In this document: piece after piece, positions 4,380-28,960 of the stretch
Position numbering within the stretch: position 1 is the stretch's first letter
How the letters are laid out: every line of letters starts with the position of its first letter
From: a virus
DNA: 53,823 nucleotides
Virus genome (UHGV): UHGV-0209071
Reading direction: 5' to 3' (one strand)
Translations under genes and position numbers: made by a program
The notes under the pieces: generated by a model
The model's input: the letters and a program-made list of their open reading frames with translations, nothing else
The model's database searches: none
What the model was told of the DNA's origin: nothing

Positions 4380-5468
4380 TTAGCCCACGTATTCCGGTTT
4401 CATGTCGTCCAGGGTGATGCGGAACTGGTCATACAGTTCTTCACCGAGGTGGCGGCGCGATGAGGTCAAGGTACTTTCTGCCTTCGCGAATAATGCTGCT
4501 GCCTCCGGATCCCCCGGGTTAGGGAGTGAATTTATGGCGGCCTCAACTTTGTTCTTCGCATCAACAAGGTAGTAGCGTTTCACCGCCTTACTCTTCAGTT
4601 CGGTATACAAAGCAGTACCCAGCAGAGCTTTCTGTGATTCGATGTCTACACGAATGGCTTTGGCCTGGTCCACTGAGTCAGCTTTATCAATCCGGTCTCG
4701 GAGTTCGTCAGCAACAGAGTCAACGTTAGATGCAGGCTCTTGCGTGCTGGTGGAATCGCCAACGGAGTGTGTTATCTCATTCAGCGTGACCTTTTCTGTC
4801 TGCGCCGGGTTGATAACCCTTTCTTCGCGTTCGTCAATTTCATCGGCGGTATAGACCCCGAGGATCACATCCGGGCAGTACAGTCGCGCCCAACGTTTAA
4901 CGGCGAGATAGGCCAGTTGCTGACGGGGGTCGCTCGCCCACAGTGTAGAGTTGCGGACTTGTGCCTGCGAAAGCATCAGCACAAGCTCGCGAGGTTCTGA
5001 TTCTCCTTTGAGCGTTGCCCAGGCGCGGACGCCCACGCCAGCTTCATCTTGCAAATCCCAGCCCGGCGCGATGTAGTCGTTACCTTTGCCGCTGGTTTTT
5101 TTAATGAAGCGGCCAACGATATTTTCCCATGCACCAAACCATTCAAAATGGATCCGGTCTTTGGTTGGAGCCATGGTGTTAATTACCGCATTCACCAGTT
5201 GTGCCTCATAGCCAAGCACACCTGAGTTACCCACGATGAAGGTTTTCTGTGCCACTGCAAACGGATCCATACCCCAACGCGCTGCTTGCATCACTACAGC
5301 CATGCACGCATCTGGTTTCCCACGATAATGCTCAGGCACGAAGTTTCCACTATTGGCCATTACTTCCGAGAGCGTGCGCAGGCGGTTGAACAATTCACCG
5401 TTCGTCAGGATAGAAACGTTGTCGATCTTCTGGGTCTGGTTTTCAGTAGTTGCGACTAAATTGGACAT
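4380..5468 (-). CDS. recT: RecT-family single-strand annealing recombinase
   Basis: 362 aa, RecT-like N-terminal core, sits immediately downstream of the recE-like exonuclease as in Rac. Confidence 0.85.
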   Translation of the reverse strand: MSNLVATTENQTQKIDNVSILTNGELFNRLRTLSEVMANSGNFVPEHYRGKPDACMAVVMQAARWGMDPFAVAQKTFIVGNSGVLGYEAQLVNAVINTMAPTKDRIHFEWFGAWENIVGRFIKKTSGKGNDYIAPGWDLQDEAGVGVRAWATLKGESEPRELVLMLSQAQVRNSTLWASDPRQQLAYLAVKRWARLYCPDVILGVYTADEIDEREERVINPAQTEKVTLNEITHSVGDSTSTQEPASNVDSVADELRDRIDKADSVDQAKAIRVDIESQKALLGTALYTELKSKAVKRYYLVDAKNKVEAAINSLPNPGDPEAAALFAKAESTLTSSRRHLGEELYDQFRITLDDMKPEYVG

Positions 5469-5480
5469 TGTTATTCCCCC

Positions 5481-8400
5481 TTATGCCTGTACGCGCAGCG
5501 CTTCGAGGCGGCGCATATCAAAATCGTTAAGTTCTTCGGCGTAGTCTTCAGTAATCGGCGCTGGCCAGTCGCCAGTGTCGAAACCGTTCGCAATGGCGCG
5601 CATAGCTTTGCGGTATTCCAGCATGCCGAGTTCCAGCAGTTCTTCGGATGCCTCAATGATGGCGATCCAGTGGTAGTTCTCGTCTTTGTTGACGAAAATC
5701 CAGTAGAACTGATCGAGTGCGGCGACATCGCAGTACATAGCCGCGCTCAGGTGGTAATCGCGCTCGATGATTTCCCGGTGCAATTTGGCGCGCAGGCCTT
5801 CCTGCTTGATGTTCCACATGCTGATGGTTTTAAGGTCTGCACCGATGCGCAGGCCGCCCATGTCTATCTCAAGGTCAGGACGCACGCGAACTTCCAGCCC
5901 GGTTTCCTCATCAATGCCGAAATAGCTTACTTCGACGGCGCGGCTCGGGTGGGTCAGTAGCTTCCCGGCGGTCGGGTGATTCAGGAGTGCTTTCTGAATG
6001 ACCAGTGCCGTAGCCAGCTGCTGGCGGGTAACCAGCACTTTTCCTTCCGGGTTCTCGCGCCATGCATCCAGCAACTCGTCGGCAAACACGGCATCCGGTT
6101 TTACCGATTTCACGGCCTGAATCAGATCGGCCTTTGTGCCAGAGACTTTCAGGGGCTGCGCCTTCTGTGCTTCCTGAGCAACCATGTCAGGATTAATAAG
6201 CGCCAGCTGTTCCAGTAAGGCATCGCGGCCACCGCTGGTTTTCACCTGGGCGGGCAGGGTGGCGTTGTATTCTTTGATGCAGGCCTTCATTGCGGTGGCG
6301 GTTTGCTTCTGACCGTCTTCAATGCGCTGGAACTCAACAGGTAAAGACATATAACCCTGGCCGGTTTCTTCAACTGATGTACCCAAGGGAACCTGGGCGG
6401 GCAGGGTCGCGTTGTATTCCTCTAGGAATCTCTTGATGTCATCTGCGCTGAGCAAAACCAGAAGCCCGTTGTTGTATTCGTCGATAAACGCGCGGATCGT
6501 CGCAGTCGTGGTGAAAGCACCTTCCGGGATTTCCGGCTCGATGCTGAACTCTGTTTCCAGCTGCTCAGGCTGCAGCGCCAGTGCATGCACCAGATTTCCC
6601 ATATCCAGAACAGGGGAGCGTACCTTCTGGATGGTTTTAGATACGTGGCGCGCCTCGAAATACATCAGCGATACCCGTGCATCTTTAACCATCGTGGAGC
6701 TGATACCGTTAGCGGCGTGGTAGATCTCATTTGGCACGCCTTCATATCGACCAGGCTCGAAATACTCCGGCCATGCTGGCGCTGCTTGTTCAGCCTCTTC
6801 CTCTTCATCGCTATGAGCACTCTCGGAAACATGGCTTTTCAGCACTTCGGCGGTAAGATCCGGGCAGCGTTCAGCCAGTATTTTGCTCATGTTCACGGCA
6901 ATTGTTTGCGCAGGAGGCTCATCAGCGCCTTCGCCTGTTGATACCGAACTATCAATTTCGTTTTTGACTGACTGATCCGCTTCCATCTGCACATTGCTGG
7001 TGTTTCCTTCTTCGGTGGCATTAGTAGCCGGTGAAGTCATAAGTCCTTCAATTGAAAACATTCCGCCGCCGAGATTTGCAATTTCCGGGGCTCTGGGTTT
7101 GGTCAGGTCTTCGGTTATCCACTTCGGATCCGTGGGGTTACTGATACCTTCGACATATTCGCCGCGTTCGGCGGCCAGAACCTGATTAGCGTCAGGGCGT
7201 TTCTTTTGATCTTCTTTCACCAGTTCGGTGCCAATTACCTGAAAGTCAGTTGGGAGAGTTTCCAGGTCAGGCACACCTTCATCTCCATCGATAGCCTTTT
7301 TCACAGCGTCCAGAGTGACGGCGGCAGATGAAACATGACCAGCTTTCTCAAGCGTCTCAGCAGAAGGGGTGTCATGCTTATGCTCGGTCAGGTTCGCATT
7401 GATGTAGGTCTGCAGACTTACCGGAAAATGATGAATATCGCTGGTGGCGCCACGAATAAGGGCAAAAATGGCTGCGCGTGAATAATCCAGGATGCCTGCG
7501 ACCTTGCGCAGCGCTGCAGACCATTCCTTGAACGGACTTTCTTTCTTCTGAACGATCTCTTTGGCCCGGCGGTGAATTGATGCCGGGAAATTGTAGATAT
7601 CGAAATCCATTGGCATTGTGGCCAGGGCTATTTCTACATCGAGCGTATCAAGGGTATGGGTGTAGTCAGGGTTGCGATCGGTTTTATTACCGCCGCCAGC
7701 ATTCGTACCTGCATCGGTTTTCAAAACCGAAGAAATGCAGTTACCGGCGGCCCATTCCCTGGTGAGAATACCGCGGTCGAGCGCGTTCGTGGCAAACCAC
7801 AGCTTTGCAAACTGGATACGCTTGCCGAGCTCATGCCGTTTCCCTTCGGGGAAGACTTTTTTATTGGCACTGGTGAATTTCCAGAGCGCCGGCATATCGT
7901 ATTTTTTGATTTCAGGGACATTCTCGGCGGCCAGAATCAGATCCTGGACGGCTGCGTTATCAGTGTCCATTTCTAGAGCTGACAGCTCCTGCCGGTGAGG
8001 CATGCTGATATGATAAACGTGACGTTCTTCGGCCATGTACTGCGCCAGCAGCTGCGCGCGAAAGGGGAGTTCGGCCACGTTAAAAAGCGCGCTGGAATCG
8101 TCCTGGTATTCATCGCTACCGAAAGTTTCCACGGTCTCACCTTGTGCCGCATCGCCAGTAGTATTGGCATCAACCAGCTCGCCAGTAACGGCCTCAGAGG
8201 TTACTCCGGCATCATCGATGTGATGATCCGCAGGCACCTGACCTGGTTTCAGAGCCCAGGTGCGACCGTCGTCGCCGAGCTGGTAGCGTTCGCACCATGA
8301 GTAATCGAGAACACCTTCCGCCGGCAGGTCATTGAATACCGGGAAATCGGTGCGAATTGGTTTTTGATAGTCTTTGCCGCGGCCTGTTTCGATTCCAGCG

Positions 8401-13686: not shown

Positions 13687-14055
13687 ATGGCTAGAGCATT
13701 GTCAGCGGTTGAGCGCAGAGAGTACGTCCGCGCAGTGATTCGGATCACCAGACATCAGGGGCGACTCACGACCGCCGAGACAATGAAAAAACTGGTGCTG
13801 AGCCGCGCTACTGTCCAGCGGTATTTTTCCGAAGCAGAAGCGACTGGCGAGGTTATCCGGCATGGTCGTTTGGGGCTTTTCCGCGATCAGCGGGCCGTCA
13901 TCGACTTTGACATGAAGCGCTTTGGCCTGGTGCCGAAAGTTGCTGTTGGGATGAATTACAGCCTGCTTGGTTGCCCCGTATTCCAGCGTTTCCTCGATAT
14001 TCAGGAAGTCATTTTTACCTGTACGCCTGCATCGTCATCCCGGGAGGCCGTATGA
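13687..14055 (+). CDS. hypothetical phage protein (122 aa; start MARAL)
   Basis: TGAGGT RBS 5 nt upstream of ATG 13687; longer ORF form would overlap dnaC-like gene. Confidence 0.5.
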   Translation: MARALSAVERREYVRAVIRITRHQGRLTTAETMKKLVLSRATVQRYFSEAEATGEVIRHGRLGLFRDQRAVIDFDMKRFGLVPKVAVGMNYSLLGCPVFQRFLDIQEVIFTCTPASSSREAV

Positions 14056-14255
14056 CAATCGTAAAAACCCATACCGGCACCGTGATCACCAAAGACGGTC
14101 TGCAGGTAAAAAAACTGCACCAGACAGAGCGAATGTGGGTCGTCGGCAAAAATGAGTTTTACCACAAAGAAACCGGGCGCCGTCACTTTGCAGAAAATAC
14201 GCGCCGCCGACTGCTGCTCGACACCATCAAGCCTATCGGGGTGAAGCATGTTTAA
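14052..14255 (+). CDS. hypothetical phage protein (67 aa; start MTIVKTH)
   Basis: GGGAGG RBS, ATG overlaps previous stop. Confidence 0.45.
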   Translation: MTIVKTHTGTVITKDGLQVKKLHQTERMWVVGKNEFYHKETGRRHFAENTRRRLLLDTIKPIGVKHV

Positions 14256-14484
14256 ACAGAACGAAAAATGTATCGCTCAAATTGCTGAGTATATCCCGCG
14301 CGCCTGCCGGGGTATGCAGCTGCAGGAGGCCAAAGCGCGCCTGGAGAAAAAAATTGCGCTCTATATCGATGACAGCTGTGATGCTGCCGTTCTTAATGCG
14401 GCCTTTGCGCCAGCTCTTAACAGCCATACGAGGGAGTCTTTTTTTTCGTGCATCGCAGCGCAGCTGCATGAGGGGGCCAAATGA
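14248..14484 (+). CDS. hypothetical phage protein (78 aa)
   Basis: ATG overlaps previous stop; co-directional. Confidence 0.45.
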   Translation: MFKQNEKCIAQIAEYIPRACRGMQLQEAKARLEKKIALYIDDSCDAAVLNAAFAPALNSHTRESFFSCIAAQLHEGAK

Positions 14485-14529
14485 ACAACTCACTGCTTAT
14501 TTTATGTATCAAAGATACCGAGGGATAAT

Positions 14530-14575
14530 GAACTGTAGGTGAGATGTAACCGGCCCGTCAGAACTGGCGGGCCGG
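14530..14575. promoter_or_regulatory. 18-bp perfect inverted repeat (TGAGATGTAACCGGCCCG / CGGGCCGGTTACATCTCA) with 10-nt loop, no U-tract
   Basis: Read directly; lies at the junction between phage-GC DNA and the low-GC cassette. Confidence 0.6.
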
Positions 14576-14731
14576 TTACATCTCATGCAGTTGCTTGACG
14601 CCATTACACAAAGCGTGTTGGCGTGGCGGGGATACGAGCGCGCGCGACCGCGATATATTGTGTGGAGAACCCAATTGTTGTAATGTAGCAGCAAAATTAT
14701 CCAACTGACTGATAAAGCAGGTAAATGAATA

Positions 14732-15781
14732 ATGGCAATAAATAAACTTAGTTATCAGTGTCTAGAAACAGTTTTTGGTGATATTCCTGCATTTACTTTC
14801 TCTATGAAGGTAAAAGAATTGATCCCCATGTATTACGTTGCTGTTCGAGGGCGAGATAATGAGGAAGGAGCCGTTCAGCGTGTACTTAATAGTAGAAGAA
14901 TAACAAGTATTAAAAAATATGTTCTTGATGGTAATATATTCTTTAGTTCATTTATTTTGAACTGGACGAATGCAGATAAAAAGATTGTAGTTAAAGATGG
15001 TATCATTTCTTTTGATTTTATTCCTGCATCTATTCAGGTTATTGATGGTCAGCATCGATTAGCTGGTTTAGAAGAAGCTATGGAGGAAGATCCTAAAGTT
15101 GGTGAAATGGACATATTAGTTACTTTATGTGAATCATTAACAACGCCACAAGCAGCAAAAATTTTCTTAAATATCAATACAGAACAAAAACCAGTACCTA
15201 AGAGCTTAATTTACGATCTTTTTGGTGAACTCGAAGACGATGAAACGCATGCGATAAATCGTATAACTGACATTGCTCGTGAGCTAAATGATTTAGAGAC
15301 ATCTCCGTTTTATAAGTTAATAAAGTTTCCGGGGTCACCTCGTGGTGTTGGTAATATCGAGTTATCTACTATTGTTCAATCCTTAAAAGAGCATGTTAAG
15401 CCAGCGGGAACATTTGCGAAATATAATATTAGGACATATGATAATCAACGCAATTTGATCATAAACTTCTTCAATGGCATCAAATACTATTACGACAAAG
15501 AAAATATTTGGAATAGCAAAGCTAAGAATCCATTTGTAAAAGCCGCTGGCTTTGCGGGTGCTGTGGATTTCTTGACTGAAAAACTACTTTCACAATGCGT
15601 TGAAAGGAAATCATTTACTGTTGATACAATAAAGTCAATTATTTCGCTAGAGAAATCGACACTTATTACCTGGGATGAATTAAAGAATCATGATGGTAAA
15701 ACAGCAAGGAAAAGAGTGAAGGAATTGCTGGAAGAAAACGTACTGTCATCACTACCGTCTCAGGATGAATATGAATTTTAA
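14732..15781 (+). CDS. DGQHR-domain protein (DndB-like, ParB/Srx-fold) - first gene of low-GC cargo cassette
   Basis: 349 aa; exact motif IDGQHRLAGL (DGQHR) at the position expected for DndB/DGQHR family; strongly AT-rich codon usage versus surrounding prophage. Confidence 0.7.
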   Translation: MAINKLSYQCLETVFGDIPAFTFSMKVKELIPMYYVAVRGRDNEEGAVQRVLNSRRITSIKKYVLDGNIFFSSFILNWTNADKKIVVKDGIISFDFIPASIQVIDGQHRLAGLEEAMEEDPKVGEMDILVTLCESLTTPQAAKIFLNINTEQKPVPKSLIYDLFGELEDDETHAINRITDIARELNDLETSPFYKLIKFPGSPRGVGNIELSTIVQSLKEHVKPAGTFAKYNIRTYDNQRNLIINFFNGIKYYYDKENIWNSKAKNPFVKAAGFAGAVDFLTEKLLSQCVERKSFTVDTIKSIISLEKSTLITWDELKNHDGKTARKRVKELLEENVLSSLPSQDEYEF

Positions 15782-16613
15782 AAGATATCTCTGTCAGGAG
15801 TTTATTGAGGCTGAAGTGGGATGCTCGGATCCCACTCAGTTAGGTCAATATAAAGATAGAATTGATTCGATTCAGTTAAGTGCTAGTAAATTGTCAGACT
15901 TGAAAAATGCTATAAGGACTGACTCGACAGATGTTTTTTACAAAGCATCTGTAAGTTTTTTGGAGTCACTATACAGCCTTAGAAGGGGGCATTCATCATG
16001 GGCCATAATTAAATTATATTATTCCATTTTTTATTCGTTAAGAGCTTTCTTGCTTCTTGAGGGATATTCTATTTTCAAAAATGGAAAAGGGGATATATTT
16101 TTTTTAGAGTGCGTGGAAAATGCTGTACCAATACGTATTTCCACTAATAAAATAAAAGGAGATCACAAAACTACTATTAAGGCCTTTGCTGAGTTATGTA
16201 AATCTCATAAGCTCAATACTAATACAATTGATTCAATTAGTGTTTTTGAGTGGGCTATCCAGTGTAGAGAACTTGTTAATTATAGAAGTTCGTCCTTCAT
16301 TGAGCCTGATTATGGCTATGAAGCAGTGCCAGAAGATTTGAGAGATTTGAATCGCTTGGAAGGACTTTTAGCAAATTATATTAACGACCCATATTATACA
16401 TATTGTTTTCTTGAAGAGCATAGCTTATTAGCAACTGCATCAGTATTAATGAATGAACTGGTTGATATGTTTAGAAATGATGGGGTTGCATTTTTAACTG
16501 ATGAGCGGCATGTTTTTTTAAAAGCTATTATTAAAAAGTCAGGGCTCATGAATATGTCCGTATTGCGAGGGTTGTTTCTTAATGATGCTGACATTTTGAT
16601 TATGGAAGAATAG
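15765..16613 (+). CDS. uncharacterised 282-aa protein, partner of the DGQHR protein (start overlaps upstream gene by 17 nt)
   Basis: ORF in same AT-rich island, overlapping upstream stop (operon); no recognisable catalytic motif. Confidence 0.6.
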   Translation: MNMNFKRYLCQEFIEAEVGCSDPTQLGQYKDRIDSIQLSASKLSDLKNAIRTDSTDVFYKASVSFLESLYSLRRGHSSWAIIKLYYSIFYSLRAFLLLEGYSIFKNGKGDIFFLECVENAVPIRISTNKIKGDHKTTIKAFAELCKSHKLNTNTIDSISVFEWAIQCRELVNYRSSSFIEPDYGYEAVPEDLRDLNRLEGLLANYINDPYYTYCFLEEHSLLATASVLMNELVDMFRNDGVAFLTDERHVFLKAIIKKSGLMNMSVLRGLFLNDADILIMEE

Positions 16614-16620
16614 AGGTGCT

Positions 16621-16660
16621 ATGGCACATTAAGTGCCATAGTTGTATTCTTGATTAAAAG
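16621..16660 (+). terminator. hairpin terminator after cassette (CTATGGCAC-attaa-GTGCCATAG + T-rich tail)
   Basis: 9-bp perfect stem directly after stop of gene 2 followed by TTGTATTCTTGATT. Confidence 0.5.
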
Positions 16661-16665
16661 TTTGG

Positions 16666-17169
16666 TTAACATGAAGTATAAGATTCAAAACTAATAACAT
16701 CCTCGCCTAACCATTCGTTAAGTTCCTTTAATCGTTTTTGCAGTGGAACTAACTCATTGCGTACAAAAACACTGCTGGCCTTTTCAACATCACCAAAACC
16801 TCCTACGTTATTAGGCATAATTCCCATCATCTGTGGTGGCACGCGGTGCGCTGCCATCATATCATCCCGGCTGACGTTCTTGATATTCAGAAATTCATCA
16901 TTCGCCGCGATCTCTGACAGCGGTATTATCTGGATGCCGTCCTTTTTACCACTGGGTGAGTGCATAAACAGGTTACGGAAGTTGCCCGGTATCTTGGCGC
17001 TTTTCATGGCCTGGCGGATATTGTTTACGTCCCCCCAGCTCTGCGCTGCGCCGGTCATGTACATGATAAAACCCGCTTCGGCGGGTTTTTTATTATGGAA
17101 AAACATCAATCTAAACATAAGCATGGTGTTGGCAAAAAGTGCTGCAGAGGGGTTGAACATTTCATGCAA
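16666..17169 (-). pseudogene. 3' fragment of a PBSX/P2 gpQ-family phage portal gene (about 165 codons, no credible N-terminus)
   Basis: Translation contains portal C-terminal signature ...DDMMAAHRVPPQMMGIMPNNVGGFGDVEKASSVFVRNELVPLQKRLKELNEWLG...; the prophage has its own complete portal at 27560-28960, so this is an extra, truncated copy. Confidence 0.6.
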
Positions 17170-17193
17170 CCGGTATACTGTATATTTATACAG
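17152..17193 (+). promoter_or_regulatory. SOS-regulated promoter of dinI: TTGAAC(17152-17157)-16-TATACT(17174-17179) overlapping a perfect LexA box TACTGTATATTTATACAGTA (CTGT-N8-ACAG at 17178-17193)
   Basis: Direct match to LexA consensus CTGT(N8)ACAG with AT-rich centre; 22 nt upstream of dinI ATG with GAGGTG RBS. Confidence 0.8.
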
Positions 17194-17215
17194 TATCTGT
17201 GTGAGGTGCTAACCA

Positions 17216-17448
17216 TGAAAGTTGAAGTCACAATTGATAAACATAAAAAACTCCCTGATGGTGCCATACCTGCGCTTGAGCAAGAATTGCTGCGCCGCTT
17301 GTCCCAGTCTTATGATGACTACAAATTAACCATTCGACGCACAAGCAACGATGGTCTTAGCGTTTTGGGCGGCGCTGATGGCGATAAAAAACGCGTTGAG
17401 CAAATCCTGCAAGAGACGTGGGAAAGCGCGGACGACTGGTTTTACTGA
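17216..17448 (+). CDS. dinI: DinI-family DNA-damage-inducible protein (77 aa)
   Basis: MKVEVTIDK...AIPALEQELLRRL...LSVLGGADGDKKRVEQILQETWESADDWFY closely parallels E. coli DinI. Confidence 0.85.
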
Positions 17449-17525
17449 TTCACCTTTTGGTGGCTGGCATTTCCCAAAGCATCGCAATAAGCGTGTCCCT
17501 TTGATGCTGTCGCCAGACTATATTT

Positions 17526-17747
17526 ATGCGTCTGTATGTCGCTCAGGGGGATGAAGTGGATCTCGATATCGCCGAAGTGGTGGACATTATCAGGCAGGGC
17601 GGGAAGTTTTTAATTTCGAGCGATGGGGGGAAAATAACCGGGCTCGAAAAGGTAAGAAAAAATCAGTTTTTGCTGACGATTGAAGAGTTTAAAGAGCTAG
17701 CTAAAGAAGCTGGCTGCATTGACGAAACCGAGAGTAAGCTGCAATAA
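17526..17747 (+). CDS. hypothetical protein (start uncertain: ATG 17526 or GTG 17558 with AGGGGGA RBS)
   Basis: ORF only; no family recognised. Confidence 0.3.
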   Translation: MRLYVAQGDEVDLDIAEVVDIIRQGGKFLISSDGGKITGLEKVRKNQFLLTIEEFKELAKEAGCIDETESKLQ

Positions 17748-17804
17748 TTTACCTGCCGCCTGAACAACGGCAACGGAGCATCTCAGCGCCACGGAGTGAA
17801 ACCC

Positions 17805-18404
17805 ATGGCGCAACAATTACACCTGATAAAACAGACCCAAGGAATACTGATCCCTGCCACGCAGGAGACCAGTGATTTCTTGCAATCAAAATGCAAGCTC
17901 GGCGCCGTTCTGGAGGCCGATTTTAAGCTTGTCCGCAATCCGGCGTTTCACCGCCGATACTTTGCTTTACTCAATCTCGGCTTTGAATATTGGGAACCTA
18001 CCGGCGGGGCGATTTCGTCTAACGAGCGCAGGCTTATCACAGGTTACGCCAAATACCTTGCTGCATATGGCGGGAGTGAATCGGCGTTGCTTGATGCCGC
18101 CGGGCAATATCTCGACCTGATAGCTGAGAAGCGATCCGGTTCAATCAGTATTTGCAAATCCTTCGATGCTTACCGGGCGTGGGTCATCGTTGAGGCCGGC
18201 CACTATGACGCCATACAGCTGCCGGACGGCACGCTGAAAAAACACCCTCGCAGCATTTCTTTCGCAAGCATGGACGAATGCGAGTTCCAGGAACTGTACA
18301 AAGCATCGCTCGATGTTCTCTGGCGGTGGATCCTCTCTCGTTCTTTCAACAGCCTGCAGGAAGCTGAAAACGCCGCCAACCAGCTTTTAAGCTTCGCGGG
18401 GTGA
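17805..18404 (+). CDS. DUF1367-family phage protein (199 aa)
   Basis: GGAG RBS 8 nt before ATG 17805; nin-region position; family typical of lambdoid prophages. Confidence 0.55.
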   Translation: MAQQLHLIKQTQGILIPATQETSDFLQSKCKLGAVLEADFKLVRNPAFHRRYFALLNLGFEYWEPTGGAISSNERRLITGYAKYLAAYGGSESALLDAAGQYLDLIAEKRSGSISICKSFDAYRAWVIVEAGHYDAIQLPDGTLKKHPRSISFASMDECEFQELYKASLDVLWRWILSRSFNSLQEAENAANQLLSFAG

Positions 18405-26275: not shown

Positions 26276-27560
26276 CGTTCCCCAGGCTCGTTTTCTGGCT
26301 ATGCAGCAGAAGTTCAAAGCCTATGTAGCTGGTTTTGGATCCGGTAAGACATGGGTTGGCTGCGGTGGAATATGCAAAGGGTTCTGGGAGTTCCCCAAAA
26401 TAAACCAAGGCTACTTTGCCCCGACTTATCCTCAGATCCGCGATATTTTCTACCCCACGGTGGAAGAAGTTGCTCACGACTGGGGACTGAAAGTCAAAAT
26501 CGTTGAAAGCAACAAAGAGGTCCATTTCTACAGTGGGCGCCAGTACCGCGGCACGACAATTTGTCGGTCGATGGAAAAGCCCGACACGATAGTAGGCTTT
26601 AAAATCGGCAATGCGCTGGTGGATGAACTCGACGTTCTGAAAGCGGATAAGGCGCGTCAGGCGTGGCGAAAAATAATCGCGCGTATGCGTTATAAAGTTG
26701 ATGGTCTGCGTAATGGCATTGACGTGACTACCACACCTGAAGGATTTAAGTTCGTCTATAACCAGTTTGTTAAGGCTGTGAGGGAAAAGCCTGAACTGAG
26801 GTCGATGTATGGTCTGGTACAGGCTTCGACATTCGACAACGAAAAGAACCTGCCGGATGACTATATTCCTTCGCTTCTGGCGAGTTACCCGCCGGAATTG
26901 ATCAAGGCATATCTGAATGGCCAGTTTACTAACCTGACCAGCGGCACCATTTATCATCAGTTCGACAGAGTGCTGAATAATTCCAGTGAGGAAGAGCAGC
27001 CAGGTGAAGCGCTGTATATCGGGATGGATTTCAACGTCGGGAAGATGGCCGGGATCGTCCATGTATTGCGGCTCGGCTTACCACACGCGGTAACAGAGAT
27101 TATCAACGCTTACGATACGCCAGACATGATACGCATCATCAAGGAACGTTTCTGGCTGTATGCCGACGGTGACTACCGCAAGGTCCGCGAGATTTATATT
27201 TACCCGGATGCCTCTGGTGACTCCAGGAAATCAAACAACGCCAGCAAAACAGATATTGAGCAGCTCCGACAGGCCGGATTTAACGTCATCGTTGATGATG
27301 CTAACCCGCCGGTAAAGGACCGCATCAACTCCATGAACGCCATGTTCTGTAATGGTAATGGTGATCGCCGGTACAAGGTGAATGTGGCCCGTTGCCCGGT
27401 CTATGCCGACTGCCTGGAACAACAGGTGTGGGATAAAAACGGCGAGCCGGATAAAAAGAGCGATAACGATCACCCCAACGATGGCGCTGGTTACTTCATT
27501 GTGAAGCAATTCCCAATCGTTCGACCTGCATTCTCTATTTCACTGGACACGACATTCTGA
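26253..27560 (+). CDS. terminase large subunit
   Basis: Walker A GFGSGKT near N-terminus, 435 aa, followed by portal. Confidence 0.85.
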   Translation: MAIAPTLNVPQARFLAMQQKFKAYVAGFGSGKTWVGCGGICKGFWEFPKINQGYFAPTYPQIRDIFYPTVEEVAHDWGLKVKIVESNKEVHFYSGRQYRGTTICRSMEKPDTIVGFKIGNALVDELDVLKADKARQAWRKIIARMRYKVDGLRNGIDVTTTPEGFKFVYNQFVKAVREKPELRSMYGLVQASTFDNEKNLPDDYIPSLLASYPPELIKAYLNGQFTNLTSGTIYHQFDRVLNNSSEEEQPGEALYIGMDFNVGKMAGIVHVLRLGLPHAVTEIINAYDTPDMIRIIKERFWLYADGDYRKVREIYIYPDASGDSRKSNNASKTDIEQLRQAGFNVIVDDANPPVKDRINSMNAMFCNGNGDRRYKVNVARCPVYADCLEQQVWDKNGEPDKKSDNDHPNDGAGYFIVKQFPIVRPAFSISLDTTF

Positions 27561-28960
27561 TGGCCAATAACGATATTACTTATGTTCGCCCTGAGGTCAG
27601 GGCGGCGATGCCCGTGTGGAAAAAAATTCGTGACGTGTGCAAAGGGGCTGATGCTGTAAAGGCCGCCGGGAATGAATACCTCCCTTTTCTGGATCCGTCC
27701 GATAAGTCTGCACGCAATAAAAAGCGCAATGCTGATTACATTCAGCGCGCCGTTTTCTACGCGATAACGGGCAATACAAAAGTGGGTCTACTGGGGCTGG
27801 CATTCAGAAAAGACCCGACCATGACCGCGCCGGATAAACTGAATTATCTTCGTGACAACGCCGATGGTGCTGGTGCCAGCATTTATCAGCAGTCCCAGCA
27901 GGTTACAGAAAATATTCTGGAGGCCGCGCGCGAGGGGCTTTATACGGATTATGCAGCTGAGACCGACGAGGCGATCATCCTTCGTTATCAGGCGGAAAGC
28001 ATCATTAACTGGCGCACCAAACGCATCAATGGACGTGATCAACTGGTGCTGGTGGTTTTACGTGAATGCATGGAAAAGGAAGATGGTTTTGCGTACGAGG
28101 ATGAAATCCAGTATCGCGAACTGGCTCTGGAGAACGGAAAGTTTGTCTGCCGGGTATGGCGAAAGTCAGCTGACGCAGGCTCTTTTTCCGTCGATTCTGA
28201 GTATCACCCGAAGCCTAAAGGTGAGGATTTTTGGGATGAAATCCCCTTTACCTTCGTTGGTGCACAAAATAACGATCCCAGCATCGACGAGTCGCCTTTA
28301 GCCGCCCTCGTTGAAATTAACCTTGGTCATTATCGAAATTCGGCGGATTACGAAGACAGCGTATTTTTCTGCGGTCAGGTTCAGCCGGTGATTTCCGGGC
28401 TTGATACCGCCTGGCGTGACTGGCTGCAGGATAAGGGAATTCGTGTCGGTTCTCGTTCTCCATTCCTGCTGCCGAAGGAGGGGAGTTTTACCTATGCTCA
28501 GGCGCAACCAAACACCCTGGCTAAAGAGGCGATGGACAGTAAGCGTGATTATTCTGTTCAGCTTGGCGCCCGGCTTATCGAGCAGAACGGCGCGGTTAAA
28601 ACCGCCACGCAATCCAGCGGCGAGCAAACCGCATCCACATCGGTGCTCGGCATTTGCGTTTCCAATGTCTCGGAGGCCTATACGCTGGCGCTCGGCTGGT
28701 GCGCCAGATATCTCGGCATAAAAGGCGAGGAATATCGTTACAGCATCAATCAGGAGTTTATCGCCAAAGTCGCAGAATCCGGCATGGTAACGGCAATCGT
28801 CAATGCCTGGCAGTACGGTGCGATTCGCGACACTGATATGGTCAGAGCTCTGCAGAGGCTTGACCTGATAGATCCTGCTGACGACCCTGAAACTGTCATT
28901 GACGCTATTCGTAACGGCGCGCCTAACCTGATTGGTGGCAATAATGGCAACGGCGAATGA
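27560..28960 (+). CDS. portal protein
   Basis: 466 aa immediately after terL and before MuF-like gene; canonical order. Confidence 0.75.
   Translation: MANNDITYVRPEVRAAMPVWKKIRDVCKGADAVKAAGNEYLPFLDPSDKSARNKKRNADYIQRAVFYAITGNTKVGLLGLAFRKDPTMTAPDKLNYLRDNADGAGASIYQQSQQVTENILEAAREGLYTDYAAETDEAIILRYQAESIINWRTKRINGRDQLVLVVLRECMEKEDGFAYEDEIQYRELALENGKFVCRVWRKSADAGSFSVDSEYHPKPKGEDFWDEIPFTFVGAQNNDPSIDESPLAALVEINLGHYRNSADYEDSVFFCGQVQPVISGLDTAWRDWLQDKGIRVGSRSPFLLPKEGSFTYAQAQPNTLAKEAMDSKRDYSVQLGARLIEQNGAVKTATQSSGEQTASTSVLGICVSNVSEAYTLALGWCARYLGIKGEEYRYSINQEFIAKVAESGMVTAIVNAWQYGAIRDTDMVRALQRLDLIDPADDPETVIDAIRNGAPNLIGGNNGNGE

Follow-up and report, generated by a model that had tools for sequence, protein, structure and literature searches.

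A chimeric portal-gene relic in a Klebsiella lambdoid prophage probably flanks a captured P2-type hotspot

An open reading frame next to dinI in a Klebsiella pneumoniae lambdoid prophage appears to be a dead piece of a P2-type portal gene. The frame (minus strand, 16666–17169, 167 codons with a TTG start) lies in the virus genome UHGV-0209071, whose whole stretch of 53,823 nucleotides we call the window. We propose that it is a non-functional portal pseudogene (psiQ) and one flank of a P2-type hotspot that a lambdoid phage captured and whose cargo was later swapped, a reading to which we give a probability of roughly 0.78.

The hotspots beside cos in P2 and P4 elements are a major and well-studied reservoir of anti-phage genes; how this cargo finds its way into unrelated mobile elements is less well understood. 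The location of the P2 hotspot, beside cos and between gpA and gpQ, is established (Rousset et al. 2022, PMC9122126), and the same authors speculated that P2 and P4 swap cargo by means of the cos end and homologous recombination (PMC9122126). A later survey (NAR 2026) reports P2 defence homologues in non-P2 prophages (PMC13586616). Its discussion of cryptic genomic islands holds that large regions of homology would be unexpected in exchanges with other kinds of mobile element (PMC13586616), whereas both hotspot flanks appear to have been transferred here. What we add is modest but specific: a hotspot that seems to have entered a lambdoid family with its two flanks, and a portal pseudogene whose chimeric structure would record a flank-mediated swap. 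The hotspot would have been transplanted entire into a prophage that is very common in K. pneumoniae, its cargo protein being found in more than 2000 assembly blocks. The breakpoints, placed to the base at the cos cohesive end and in the portal relic, fit the swap mechanism on which Rousset et al. speculated.

An earlier note on this DNA, made from the sequence alone, had described the frame as a C-terminal piece of a P2/PBSX-family portal without an N-terminus, and profile and pairwise comparisons bear this out. A PHROG profile search aligned residues 12–165 of the product with positions 187–338 of the 344 in phrog_68 (E = 4.9e-65). TIGR01540 (portal_PBSX) aligned residues 10–157 with its positions 160–316 of 320 (E = 3.2e-46), at a score of 158 bits that falls slightly below the curated cut-off of 166.05, and Pfam Phage_portal (PF04860) gave 31 bits, under its cut-off of 39.1. 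Alignment to P2 gpQ by BLASTP, which the note had recommended, yielded a C-terminal match only (gpQ residues 183–338 with product residues 8–165, 49% identity, E = 1e-56). The closest full-length portals, from Klebsiella, Salmonella and Yersinia P2-like phages, share about 76% amino-acid identity with the product. Homology to the P2/PBSX portal family is therefore significant by profile, with coverage limited to the C-terminal part and the curated cut-offs unreached.

The frame is open through all 167 codons in the present window. In genuine P2-like loci gpP lies directly upstream of Q; here neither the gpP terminase nor the capsid module adjoins the frame, whose neighbours are a cassette encoding a DGQHR-domain protein and dinI. 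With about 60% of the protein missing from the N-terminal side and the cognate terminase and capsid partners absent, the product is predicted to be unable to work as a portal.

We considered and rejected descent from a small intact protein family, a full-length match to which would have spoken against portal ancestry. The small families in question (phrog_1853, phrog_12726 and many database matches of about 132 residues) turned out to be pieces of split portal genes. The one match of about 132 residues that we traced, P0119, comes from a complete P2-like prophage of Shigella, in which it forms one half of a frameshifted portal, and fragment PHROGs of the same kind also match the native portal of the lambdoid prophage itself. 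In several Shigella genomes (L016–L019, about 5371–6402) the portal of an otherwise complete P2-like prophage is split by a frameshift into two frames, of 198 and 133 residues; the shorter one occurs on 293 contigs and is one source of the many short 'portal' entries in databases. Looking up the exact sequence of the 167-residue product gave no entry, since gene callers pick other start codons.

The native portal (27560–28960) is a full-length protein of another family (phrog_145, E = 1e-145; Pfam DUF4055), in line with the note, which had called it complete and unrelated. Next to it are a large terminase of T4 type and a capsid protein resembling Gp13. The surroundings of the P2-derived block are lambdoid as well: DnaC-like and DUF977 genes lie upstream of it, gpA is absent, and beyond the frame come a LexA box, dinI (17215–17448; DinI Pfam match, E = 2.8e-26), DUF1367, YbcO, RusA and the Q antiterminator. 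Comparison with related prophages that lack the insertion, another of the note's suggestions, was informative: homology with ordinary Klebsiella lambdoids stops at about 14484–14487 and restarts at 17062. An Rfam search of 14000–18000 found no known RNA. The coordinates of the features discussed below are collected in Table 1.

Table 1. Features of the P2-derived block and its lambdoid borders (window coordinates)
Feature	Position	Strand	Remarks
Left junction segment	14485–14551		after the stop (14484) of the last lambdoid backbone gene, up to the first P2-like base
cosR-side P2-type sequence	14552–14619	+	includes part of a long palindrome, 14540–14585
P2-family cos core	14620–14645	+	reads GGCGTGGCGGGGATACGAGCGCGCGC
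Cargo gene 1	14732–15781	+	DGQHR-domain (DndB/DpdB-like) protein, 349 residues
Cargo gene 2	15765–16613	+	282-residue partner; weak HEPN-like signal (Pfam HEPN, E = 0.0015, below cut-off)
Hairpin terminator	16618–16642		between convergent cargo and portal fragment; terminator scan
Recently imported 3' portal part	16666–16954	-	roughly gpQ residues 247–344
Older resident 5' portal part	16957–17061	-	roughly gpQ residues 210–246
Right junction of the P2-derived block	17062–17076		13/15 microhomology
Intrinsic terminator hairpin	17068–17089	+	AAAACCCGCttcgGCGGGTTTT, then T run; terminator scan; inside the annotated frame
First 31 codons of the frame	17077–17169	-	probably dinI-upstream lambdoid DNA in frame
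LexA box of dinI	17176–17195	+	TACTGTATATTTATACAGTA; read from the sequence

The portal-derived part of the frame is shorter than the frame itself. Homology to ordinary lambdoids begins at 17062, and homology to L023, a P2-like contig described below, stops at 17076. At these 15 positions the sequence of the window and of the stub-only lambdoids is CATGATAAAACCCGC, comprising a methyltransferase stop codon and the left arm of a terminator; the authentic portal of L023 (reverse complement) reads CATGATGAAGCCCGC. Scanning IMG/VR with a 31-mer from 17094–17124 retrieved 58 lambdoid loci, and in about 48 of them homology starts at 17062, to the left of which lies the 3' end of a DNA methyltransferase gene with its stop and terminator (CATGATAAAACCCGCttcgGCGGGTTTTTT). 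By this comparison the terminator at 17068–17089 would be native lambdoid DNA. From 17062 rightward, stub-only and window-type loci are 96–100% conserved (118/120 against the Klebsiella phage ST405-OXA48phi1.3, hereafter ST405phi1.3, over 17060–17179), and leftward of 17062 the divergence of the pseudogene reaches 18%. One lambdoid, L052, has the methyltransferase–terminator junction and, further left, a separate portal piece (residues 279–344).

The peptide encoded by 17077–17169 showed no significant likeness to portals in shuffle tests (p about 0.04–0.1 for free local alignment and 0.03–0.1 when end-anchored), although the HMM alignments nevertheless extend to residue 10–12 of the product. 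Because the similarity is non-significant and the comparative context points the same way, we regard the first 31 codons as non-portal. Probably the block ends at 17062–17076 and these codons are dinI-upstream DNA that is in frame by chance. Solid portal homology is confined to codons 32–167 (16666–17076), and the portal piece of 165 codons that the note had claimed shrinks to about 137 portal-derived codons. We also rejected the idea that the 84 bp at 17062–17145 are a leftover portal stub: the similarity is non-significant, the stretch abuts the methyltransferase stop as its terminator, and in L052 this terminator coexists with a distinct portal piece. A practical consequence concerns annotation: a 'phage portal protein' beside dinI in Klebsiella lambdoids is probably a relic, and part of the called frame is likely to be regulatory DNA.

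At the other end of the block lies a P2-family cos. The note had suggested looking for one within 16614–16700, and none is there; the spacer 16614–16665 holds only the hairpin. A scan of the window with the P2 cos, allowing up to three mismatches, gave no match anywhere. Aligning the left edge of the block to P2, 186 and Klebsiella P2-like phages located cos at 14620, upstream of the cargo and about 2 kb from the portal relic. The core has a single exact match in the window, with 0 expected by chance. It lines up with the sites annotated as cos in P2 (GGCGAGGCGGGGAAAGCACTGCGCGC) and 186, is identical to that of the Klebsiella P2-like prophages L004, L022 and L021, and includes at 14620–14638 the counterpart of the 19-nt cohesive end.

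P2-like homology begins at 14550–14552, and the segment just to the left of it, 14485–14551, is common to the lambdoids L032, L055 and L052, which likewise carry an embedded block. Some 100 bp at 14552–14648 are 77–81% identical to the cos-proximal flank of the P2-like L004, L022, L021 and L016. The stretch 14552–14619 is probably the resident, partly decayed version of this flank. A near-perfect palindrome of 46 bp (14540–14585; GAGATGTAACCGGCCCG...CGGGCCGGTTACATCTC) spans the left edge of the block and extends the shorter GGCCCGCC...GGCGGGC hairpin found upstream of cos in P2-like phages.

Between these borders the block keeps the order of a P2 hotspot. Klebsiella and Shigella P2-like prophages are laid out as A, DinI, (cargo), cos, cargo, hairpin terminator, convergent Q and P; the window runs, over 14552–17076, from the cosR flank through cos, cargo and bidirectional terminator to the 3' end of Q. 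With the cargo ending at 16613, the hairpin at 16618–16642 and the end of the fragment's stop codon at 16666, the layout is that of L004, L016 and L022. This hairpin is the positional counterpart of tQ in P2 and tW in 186; in P2, in 186 and in L004 the portal stop codon is immediately followed by a hairpin. With P2 gpQ and 186 gpW the frame shares homology over the C-terminal 40% or so and this hairpin directly after the stop, and it differs from them in lacking the N-terminal 60% or so, in being chimeric and, probably, in being fused to lambdoid regulatory DNA. The likeness to the P2 hotspot lies in cos beside variable cargo, a terminator, the convergent 3' end of Q (here a fragment) and alternative cargos between the same flanks; three of the cargos of the lambdoid family also occur in P2-like elements, and the breakpoints in the window fit a route by cos end and homologous recombination. 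Unlike the P2 hotspot, the window copy does not lie between A and Q of a P2-like phage. Its host is a lambdoid with an unrelated packaging module, it sits in the early/nin region, its Q flank has become a pseudogene, and it lacks the gpA/DinI side.

Two portal sequences meet in the fragment, which is chimeric, with its crossover at 16954–16957. The comparison that reveals this rests on L023, a 4.5-kb metagenomic contig of a decayed P2-like prophage in which gpS is followed by an IS3-family element, a 3' fragment of the portal gene, the same two cargo genes (here of 280 and 349 residues), cos and DinI-proximal P2-like sequence. Across 14624–16952 the window is about 98% identical to L023, and beyond those limits about 70–80%. 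We compared the window with L023 and with ST405phi1.3 (L001; 88.8% identity to the window over 16685–17600) at the sites where these two differ. Over 16691–16954 the window agrees with L023 at 74 of 76 informative sites; over 16957–17110 it agrees with ST405phi1.3 at 42 of 46, identity to L023 being about 75% over 16957–17080. Within the older part alone (16957–17061) the match to ST405phi1.3 holds at 19 of 23 sites, and the four exceptions follow L023.

The two parts of the fragment also differ in how they have changed. From L023 the imported part differs by no synonymous and three non-synonymous changes. The older part shows 8–11 non-synonymous differences from real portals, which differ among themselves by 0–5. 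There TGAAQSWGD replaces TDAAQNQED, some of the changes fall at positions otherwise invariant in real portals, and the lambdoid relic of L032 shares the derived changes (TGAAQS.GD for TDAAQNQED). The window is the recombinant because, on both sides of the crossover, L023 remains like an authentic portal and ST405phi1.3, L032, L055 and L071 form one decaying lineage. The fragment had been offered as a single piece marking an inter-phage junction; the portal origin stands, and the single piece becomes an old part and an imported one. The wider claim, that the junction marks recombination between phages and points to the source of the cargo, gains support from the P2-like order of 14552–17076 and the near-identity of 14624–16952 to L023.

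The left breakpoint of the cargo swap coincides with the cos core. From L023 the window differs at 21 positions in 14556–14623 (20 of them in 14556–14618), against about 2% in the cargo. The dense differences from both L023 and L086 end at 14619–14623, and the next one follows at 14666–14667. L086 is a second carrier of the cassette, a different lambdoid with other junctions on both sides and the same left breakpoint (last dense difference at 14619, next at 14666). It may be an independent capture, or a state nearer to the original capture. In L086 (IMG/VR 3300014008_000001, reverse complement, about 5170–7720) NinB lies downstream, the P2-like left flank is longer and the portal fragment extends to residue 179–196 or thereabouts. 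A single P2-like carrier of exactly this cassette, L023, was found.

Related lambdoids show that the cargo has turned over between constant flanks. L032, L044 and L055 have both the left junction of the window, contiguous through 14646, and its right junction, and between them carry a HATPase-like protein and a DUF4325/STAS-like protein. In L071 the PADLOC Hp1, Hp2 and Hp3 trio, which we take to be a system first found in P2/P4 hotspots, stands beside a relic of 116 residues, and L052 holds a further gene set. Together with the window type this gives the lambdoid family at least four cargos. The HATPase/DUF4325 cargo also occurs between cos and full-length Q with gpP in many P2-like contigs of IMG/VR (69–85% amino-acid identity), as does the Hp1–Hp3 cargo (95%), both values being taken over cos-flanked loci.

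The flanks of the sisters are decaying. ST405phi1.3, whose record begins inside the fragment and which has the right junction only, carries a relic with an in-frame TAG and a 1-nt deletion that is annotated as two frames. L032 has a truncated portal relic with 64% identity to a real portal; that of L052 retains residues 279–344 alone, with a different right-hand junction. Hand translation of window DNA indicates that a widespread window-type variant, P0001 (40 member sequences), has a locally shifted frame. The cos cores of the older sister copies are degenerate too (L032, GGCGTGACGGGGGGACGAGCGTGAGC; L052, GGCGTCGCAGGGATACAAGCGCGCC). Disruptions in sister copies and the excess of non-synonymous change in the older part of the window fragment are what we would look for in a pseudogene.

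Other explanations have to be weighed against this. An expressed, truncated portal subunit might poison the assembly of portal rings in P2-like phages that superinfect the cell or share it, and the lambdoid would then keep the fragment as a dominant-negative exclusion factor. Such a role would suit the frame open over 167 codons, the identity or near-identity of its 3' two-thirds to a recently functional portal, and a surrounding locus otherwise given to inter-phage conflict. We nevertheless consider it very unlikely. The sister copies bear stop codons, frameshifts and truncations, and the P0001 variant is frame-shifted locally. Reading the sequence by eye revealed no Shine-Dalgarno motif before TTG 17169 or ATG 17160, and the minus strand shows a single promoter-like site, downstream of the start, and none upstream (consensus scans are weak evidence). 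Moreover, the 5' 93 nt coincide with the terminator and the dinI control region, and the excess non-synonymous change in the old part affects positions that are invariant in real portals.

The block could instead be what deletions have left of a complete P2-like prophage nested in the lambdoid, the cargos of the sisters being independent nested integrations. Identical junctions on both sides of unrelated cargos in the window type, L032, L044 and L055 make this unlikely, as does the chimeric window fragment with its breakpoints at the two conserved flanks. The cos–Q region is internal in a P2 prophage, so that at least two precise deletions would be needed in each lineage, and the window around the block showed no P2 att or int and no further core remnants. 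On the other side of the balance are L086, which has the same cassette in a different lambdoid backbone with both junctions different, and the differing right-hand junction of L052. It is scarcely credible that the embedded cos is itself the selected feature, by which the terminase of a P2-like helper would cut or package the lambdoid region (for piracy, cargo transduction or self-sabotage) with the portal merely linked. In its favour, the 26-bp core is undamaged and matches, base for base, that of Klebsiella P2-like phages which appear functional, and P4 satellites exploit the same core cos (PMC9122126). A recent swap with a breakpoint at cos, however, accounts for the intact core, and the degenerate cos in the older sister copies argues against selection for cos function. 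Besides, P2 packages monomeric circles of about 33 kb, and a lambdoid genome of about 45–50 kb would not fit.

We favour the captured hotspot with a pseudogene flank, and on that reading events may have run as follows. A lambdoid ancestor would have captured the P2 cos-adjacent hotspot between its replication/nin genes and dinI, once in this lineage and by way of a microhomology junction. Later a double crossover with a P2-like (or L086-like) donor would have replaced the cargo and brought in the DGQHR cassette, one breakpoint falling at or in cos, at the cohesive end, and the other arising by homologous recombination inside psiQ (16954–16957). It is this exchange that would have given the fragment its mixture of older and newly acquired portal sequence. 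The exchange could have run from P2-like phage to lambdoid or the reverse, because the single P2-like carrier is a short contig with an IS-disrupted portal. Exonuclease VIII (RecE-like), which related prophage loci encode, could favour exchange events initiated at ends. The fragment is probably not expressed; its likely current role would be a passive one, as a homology arm for cargo exchange with co-resident P2-like phages and as carrier of the terminator that ends transcription of the cargo.

A truncated foreign gene at a module boundary, 13/15 microhomology and decay in sister copies are also what one sees in the junction relics of lambdoid mosaics, where modules are exchanged and illegitimate recombination leaves gene fragments behind. 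The difference is that psiQ appears, from its chimeric structure, to have been re-used as a homology arm at least once. More tentatively, and with the balance tilting slightly against it, Klebsiella lambdoids might possess in the cos core and portal pseudogene a working landing pad for P2/P4 cargo, one that repeatedly takes or gives cargo by recombination at the cos end and in psiQ. If so, pseudogene flanks would serve as adaptors between phage families, linking the accessory genomes of phages that are otherwise unrelated.

The cargo that the fragment abuts is, as the note had seen, foreign: a two-gene cassette (14732–16613) with 33% G+C. The product of gene 1 matches TIGR03187 (DGQHR, E = 1e-31), Pfam DndB (E = 1e-18) and PADLOC DpdB (E = 1e-13), its likeness to the PADLOC DpdB and DndB models being weak. 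In the assembly collection 2283 blocks are indexed as containing exactly this protein, and all 10 of the 10 loci that we read were the same prophage. Searches of PADLOC, NCBIfam and PHROG with gene 2 gave no match; this gene accompanies gene 1 in L023, in L086 and in a chromosomal islet of Rahnella (L015). The cassette looks like a self-contained mobile unit, with dnd/dpd modification genes absent nearby, and is a candidate two-gene defence system that has no PADLOC system match. The deposited-phage collection, searched at both the nucleotide and the protein level, yielded no copy of it. A GTDB scan for the DGQHR protein had the Rahnella islet, which lacks P2 context, as its sole result. There, in Rahnella laticis (L015, 9706–11566), a copy of the cassette with 72% identity lies beside a truncated integrase.

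Insertions have struck the locus in particular strains. A group II intron of 1.9 kb sits between 17194 and 17195, at the right edge of the LexA box and in the orientation of dinI, in many K. pneumoniae genomes (L005, 10465–12373; likewise L007, L008, L011, L012 and L013). It encodes a 495-residue reverse transcriptase frame, scores 187 bits with Rfam RF02005 and has a perfect palindrome as its target. The idea that it truncates the portal-derived frame in many strains proved wrong, the insertion point lying outside the frame. In L007 (12394–16080) umuD-like (Peptidase_S24) and umuC-like (IMS) genes, an AAA_15/AAA_21 ATPase and a DUF3226 protein follow the intron in place of dinI and the nin genes; the right arm of the prophage has been replaced or deleted at the intron. 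One K. pneumoniae genome (L013, 9303–10283) has an insertion sequence (DDE_Tnp_1 transposase, 326 residues) within the 282-residue partner gene, at window position 15883–15886 or so, so that in this strain the cargo is either inactivated or can be dispensed with.
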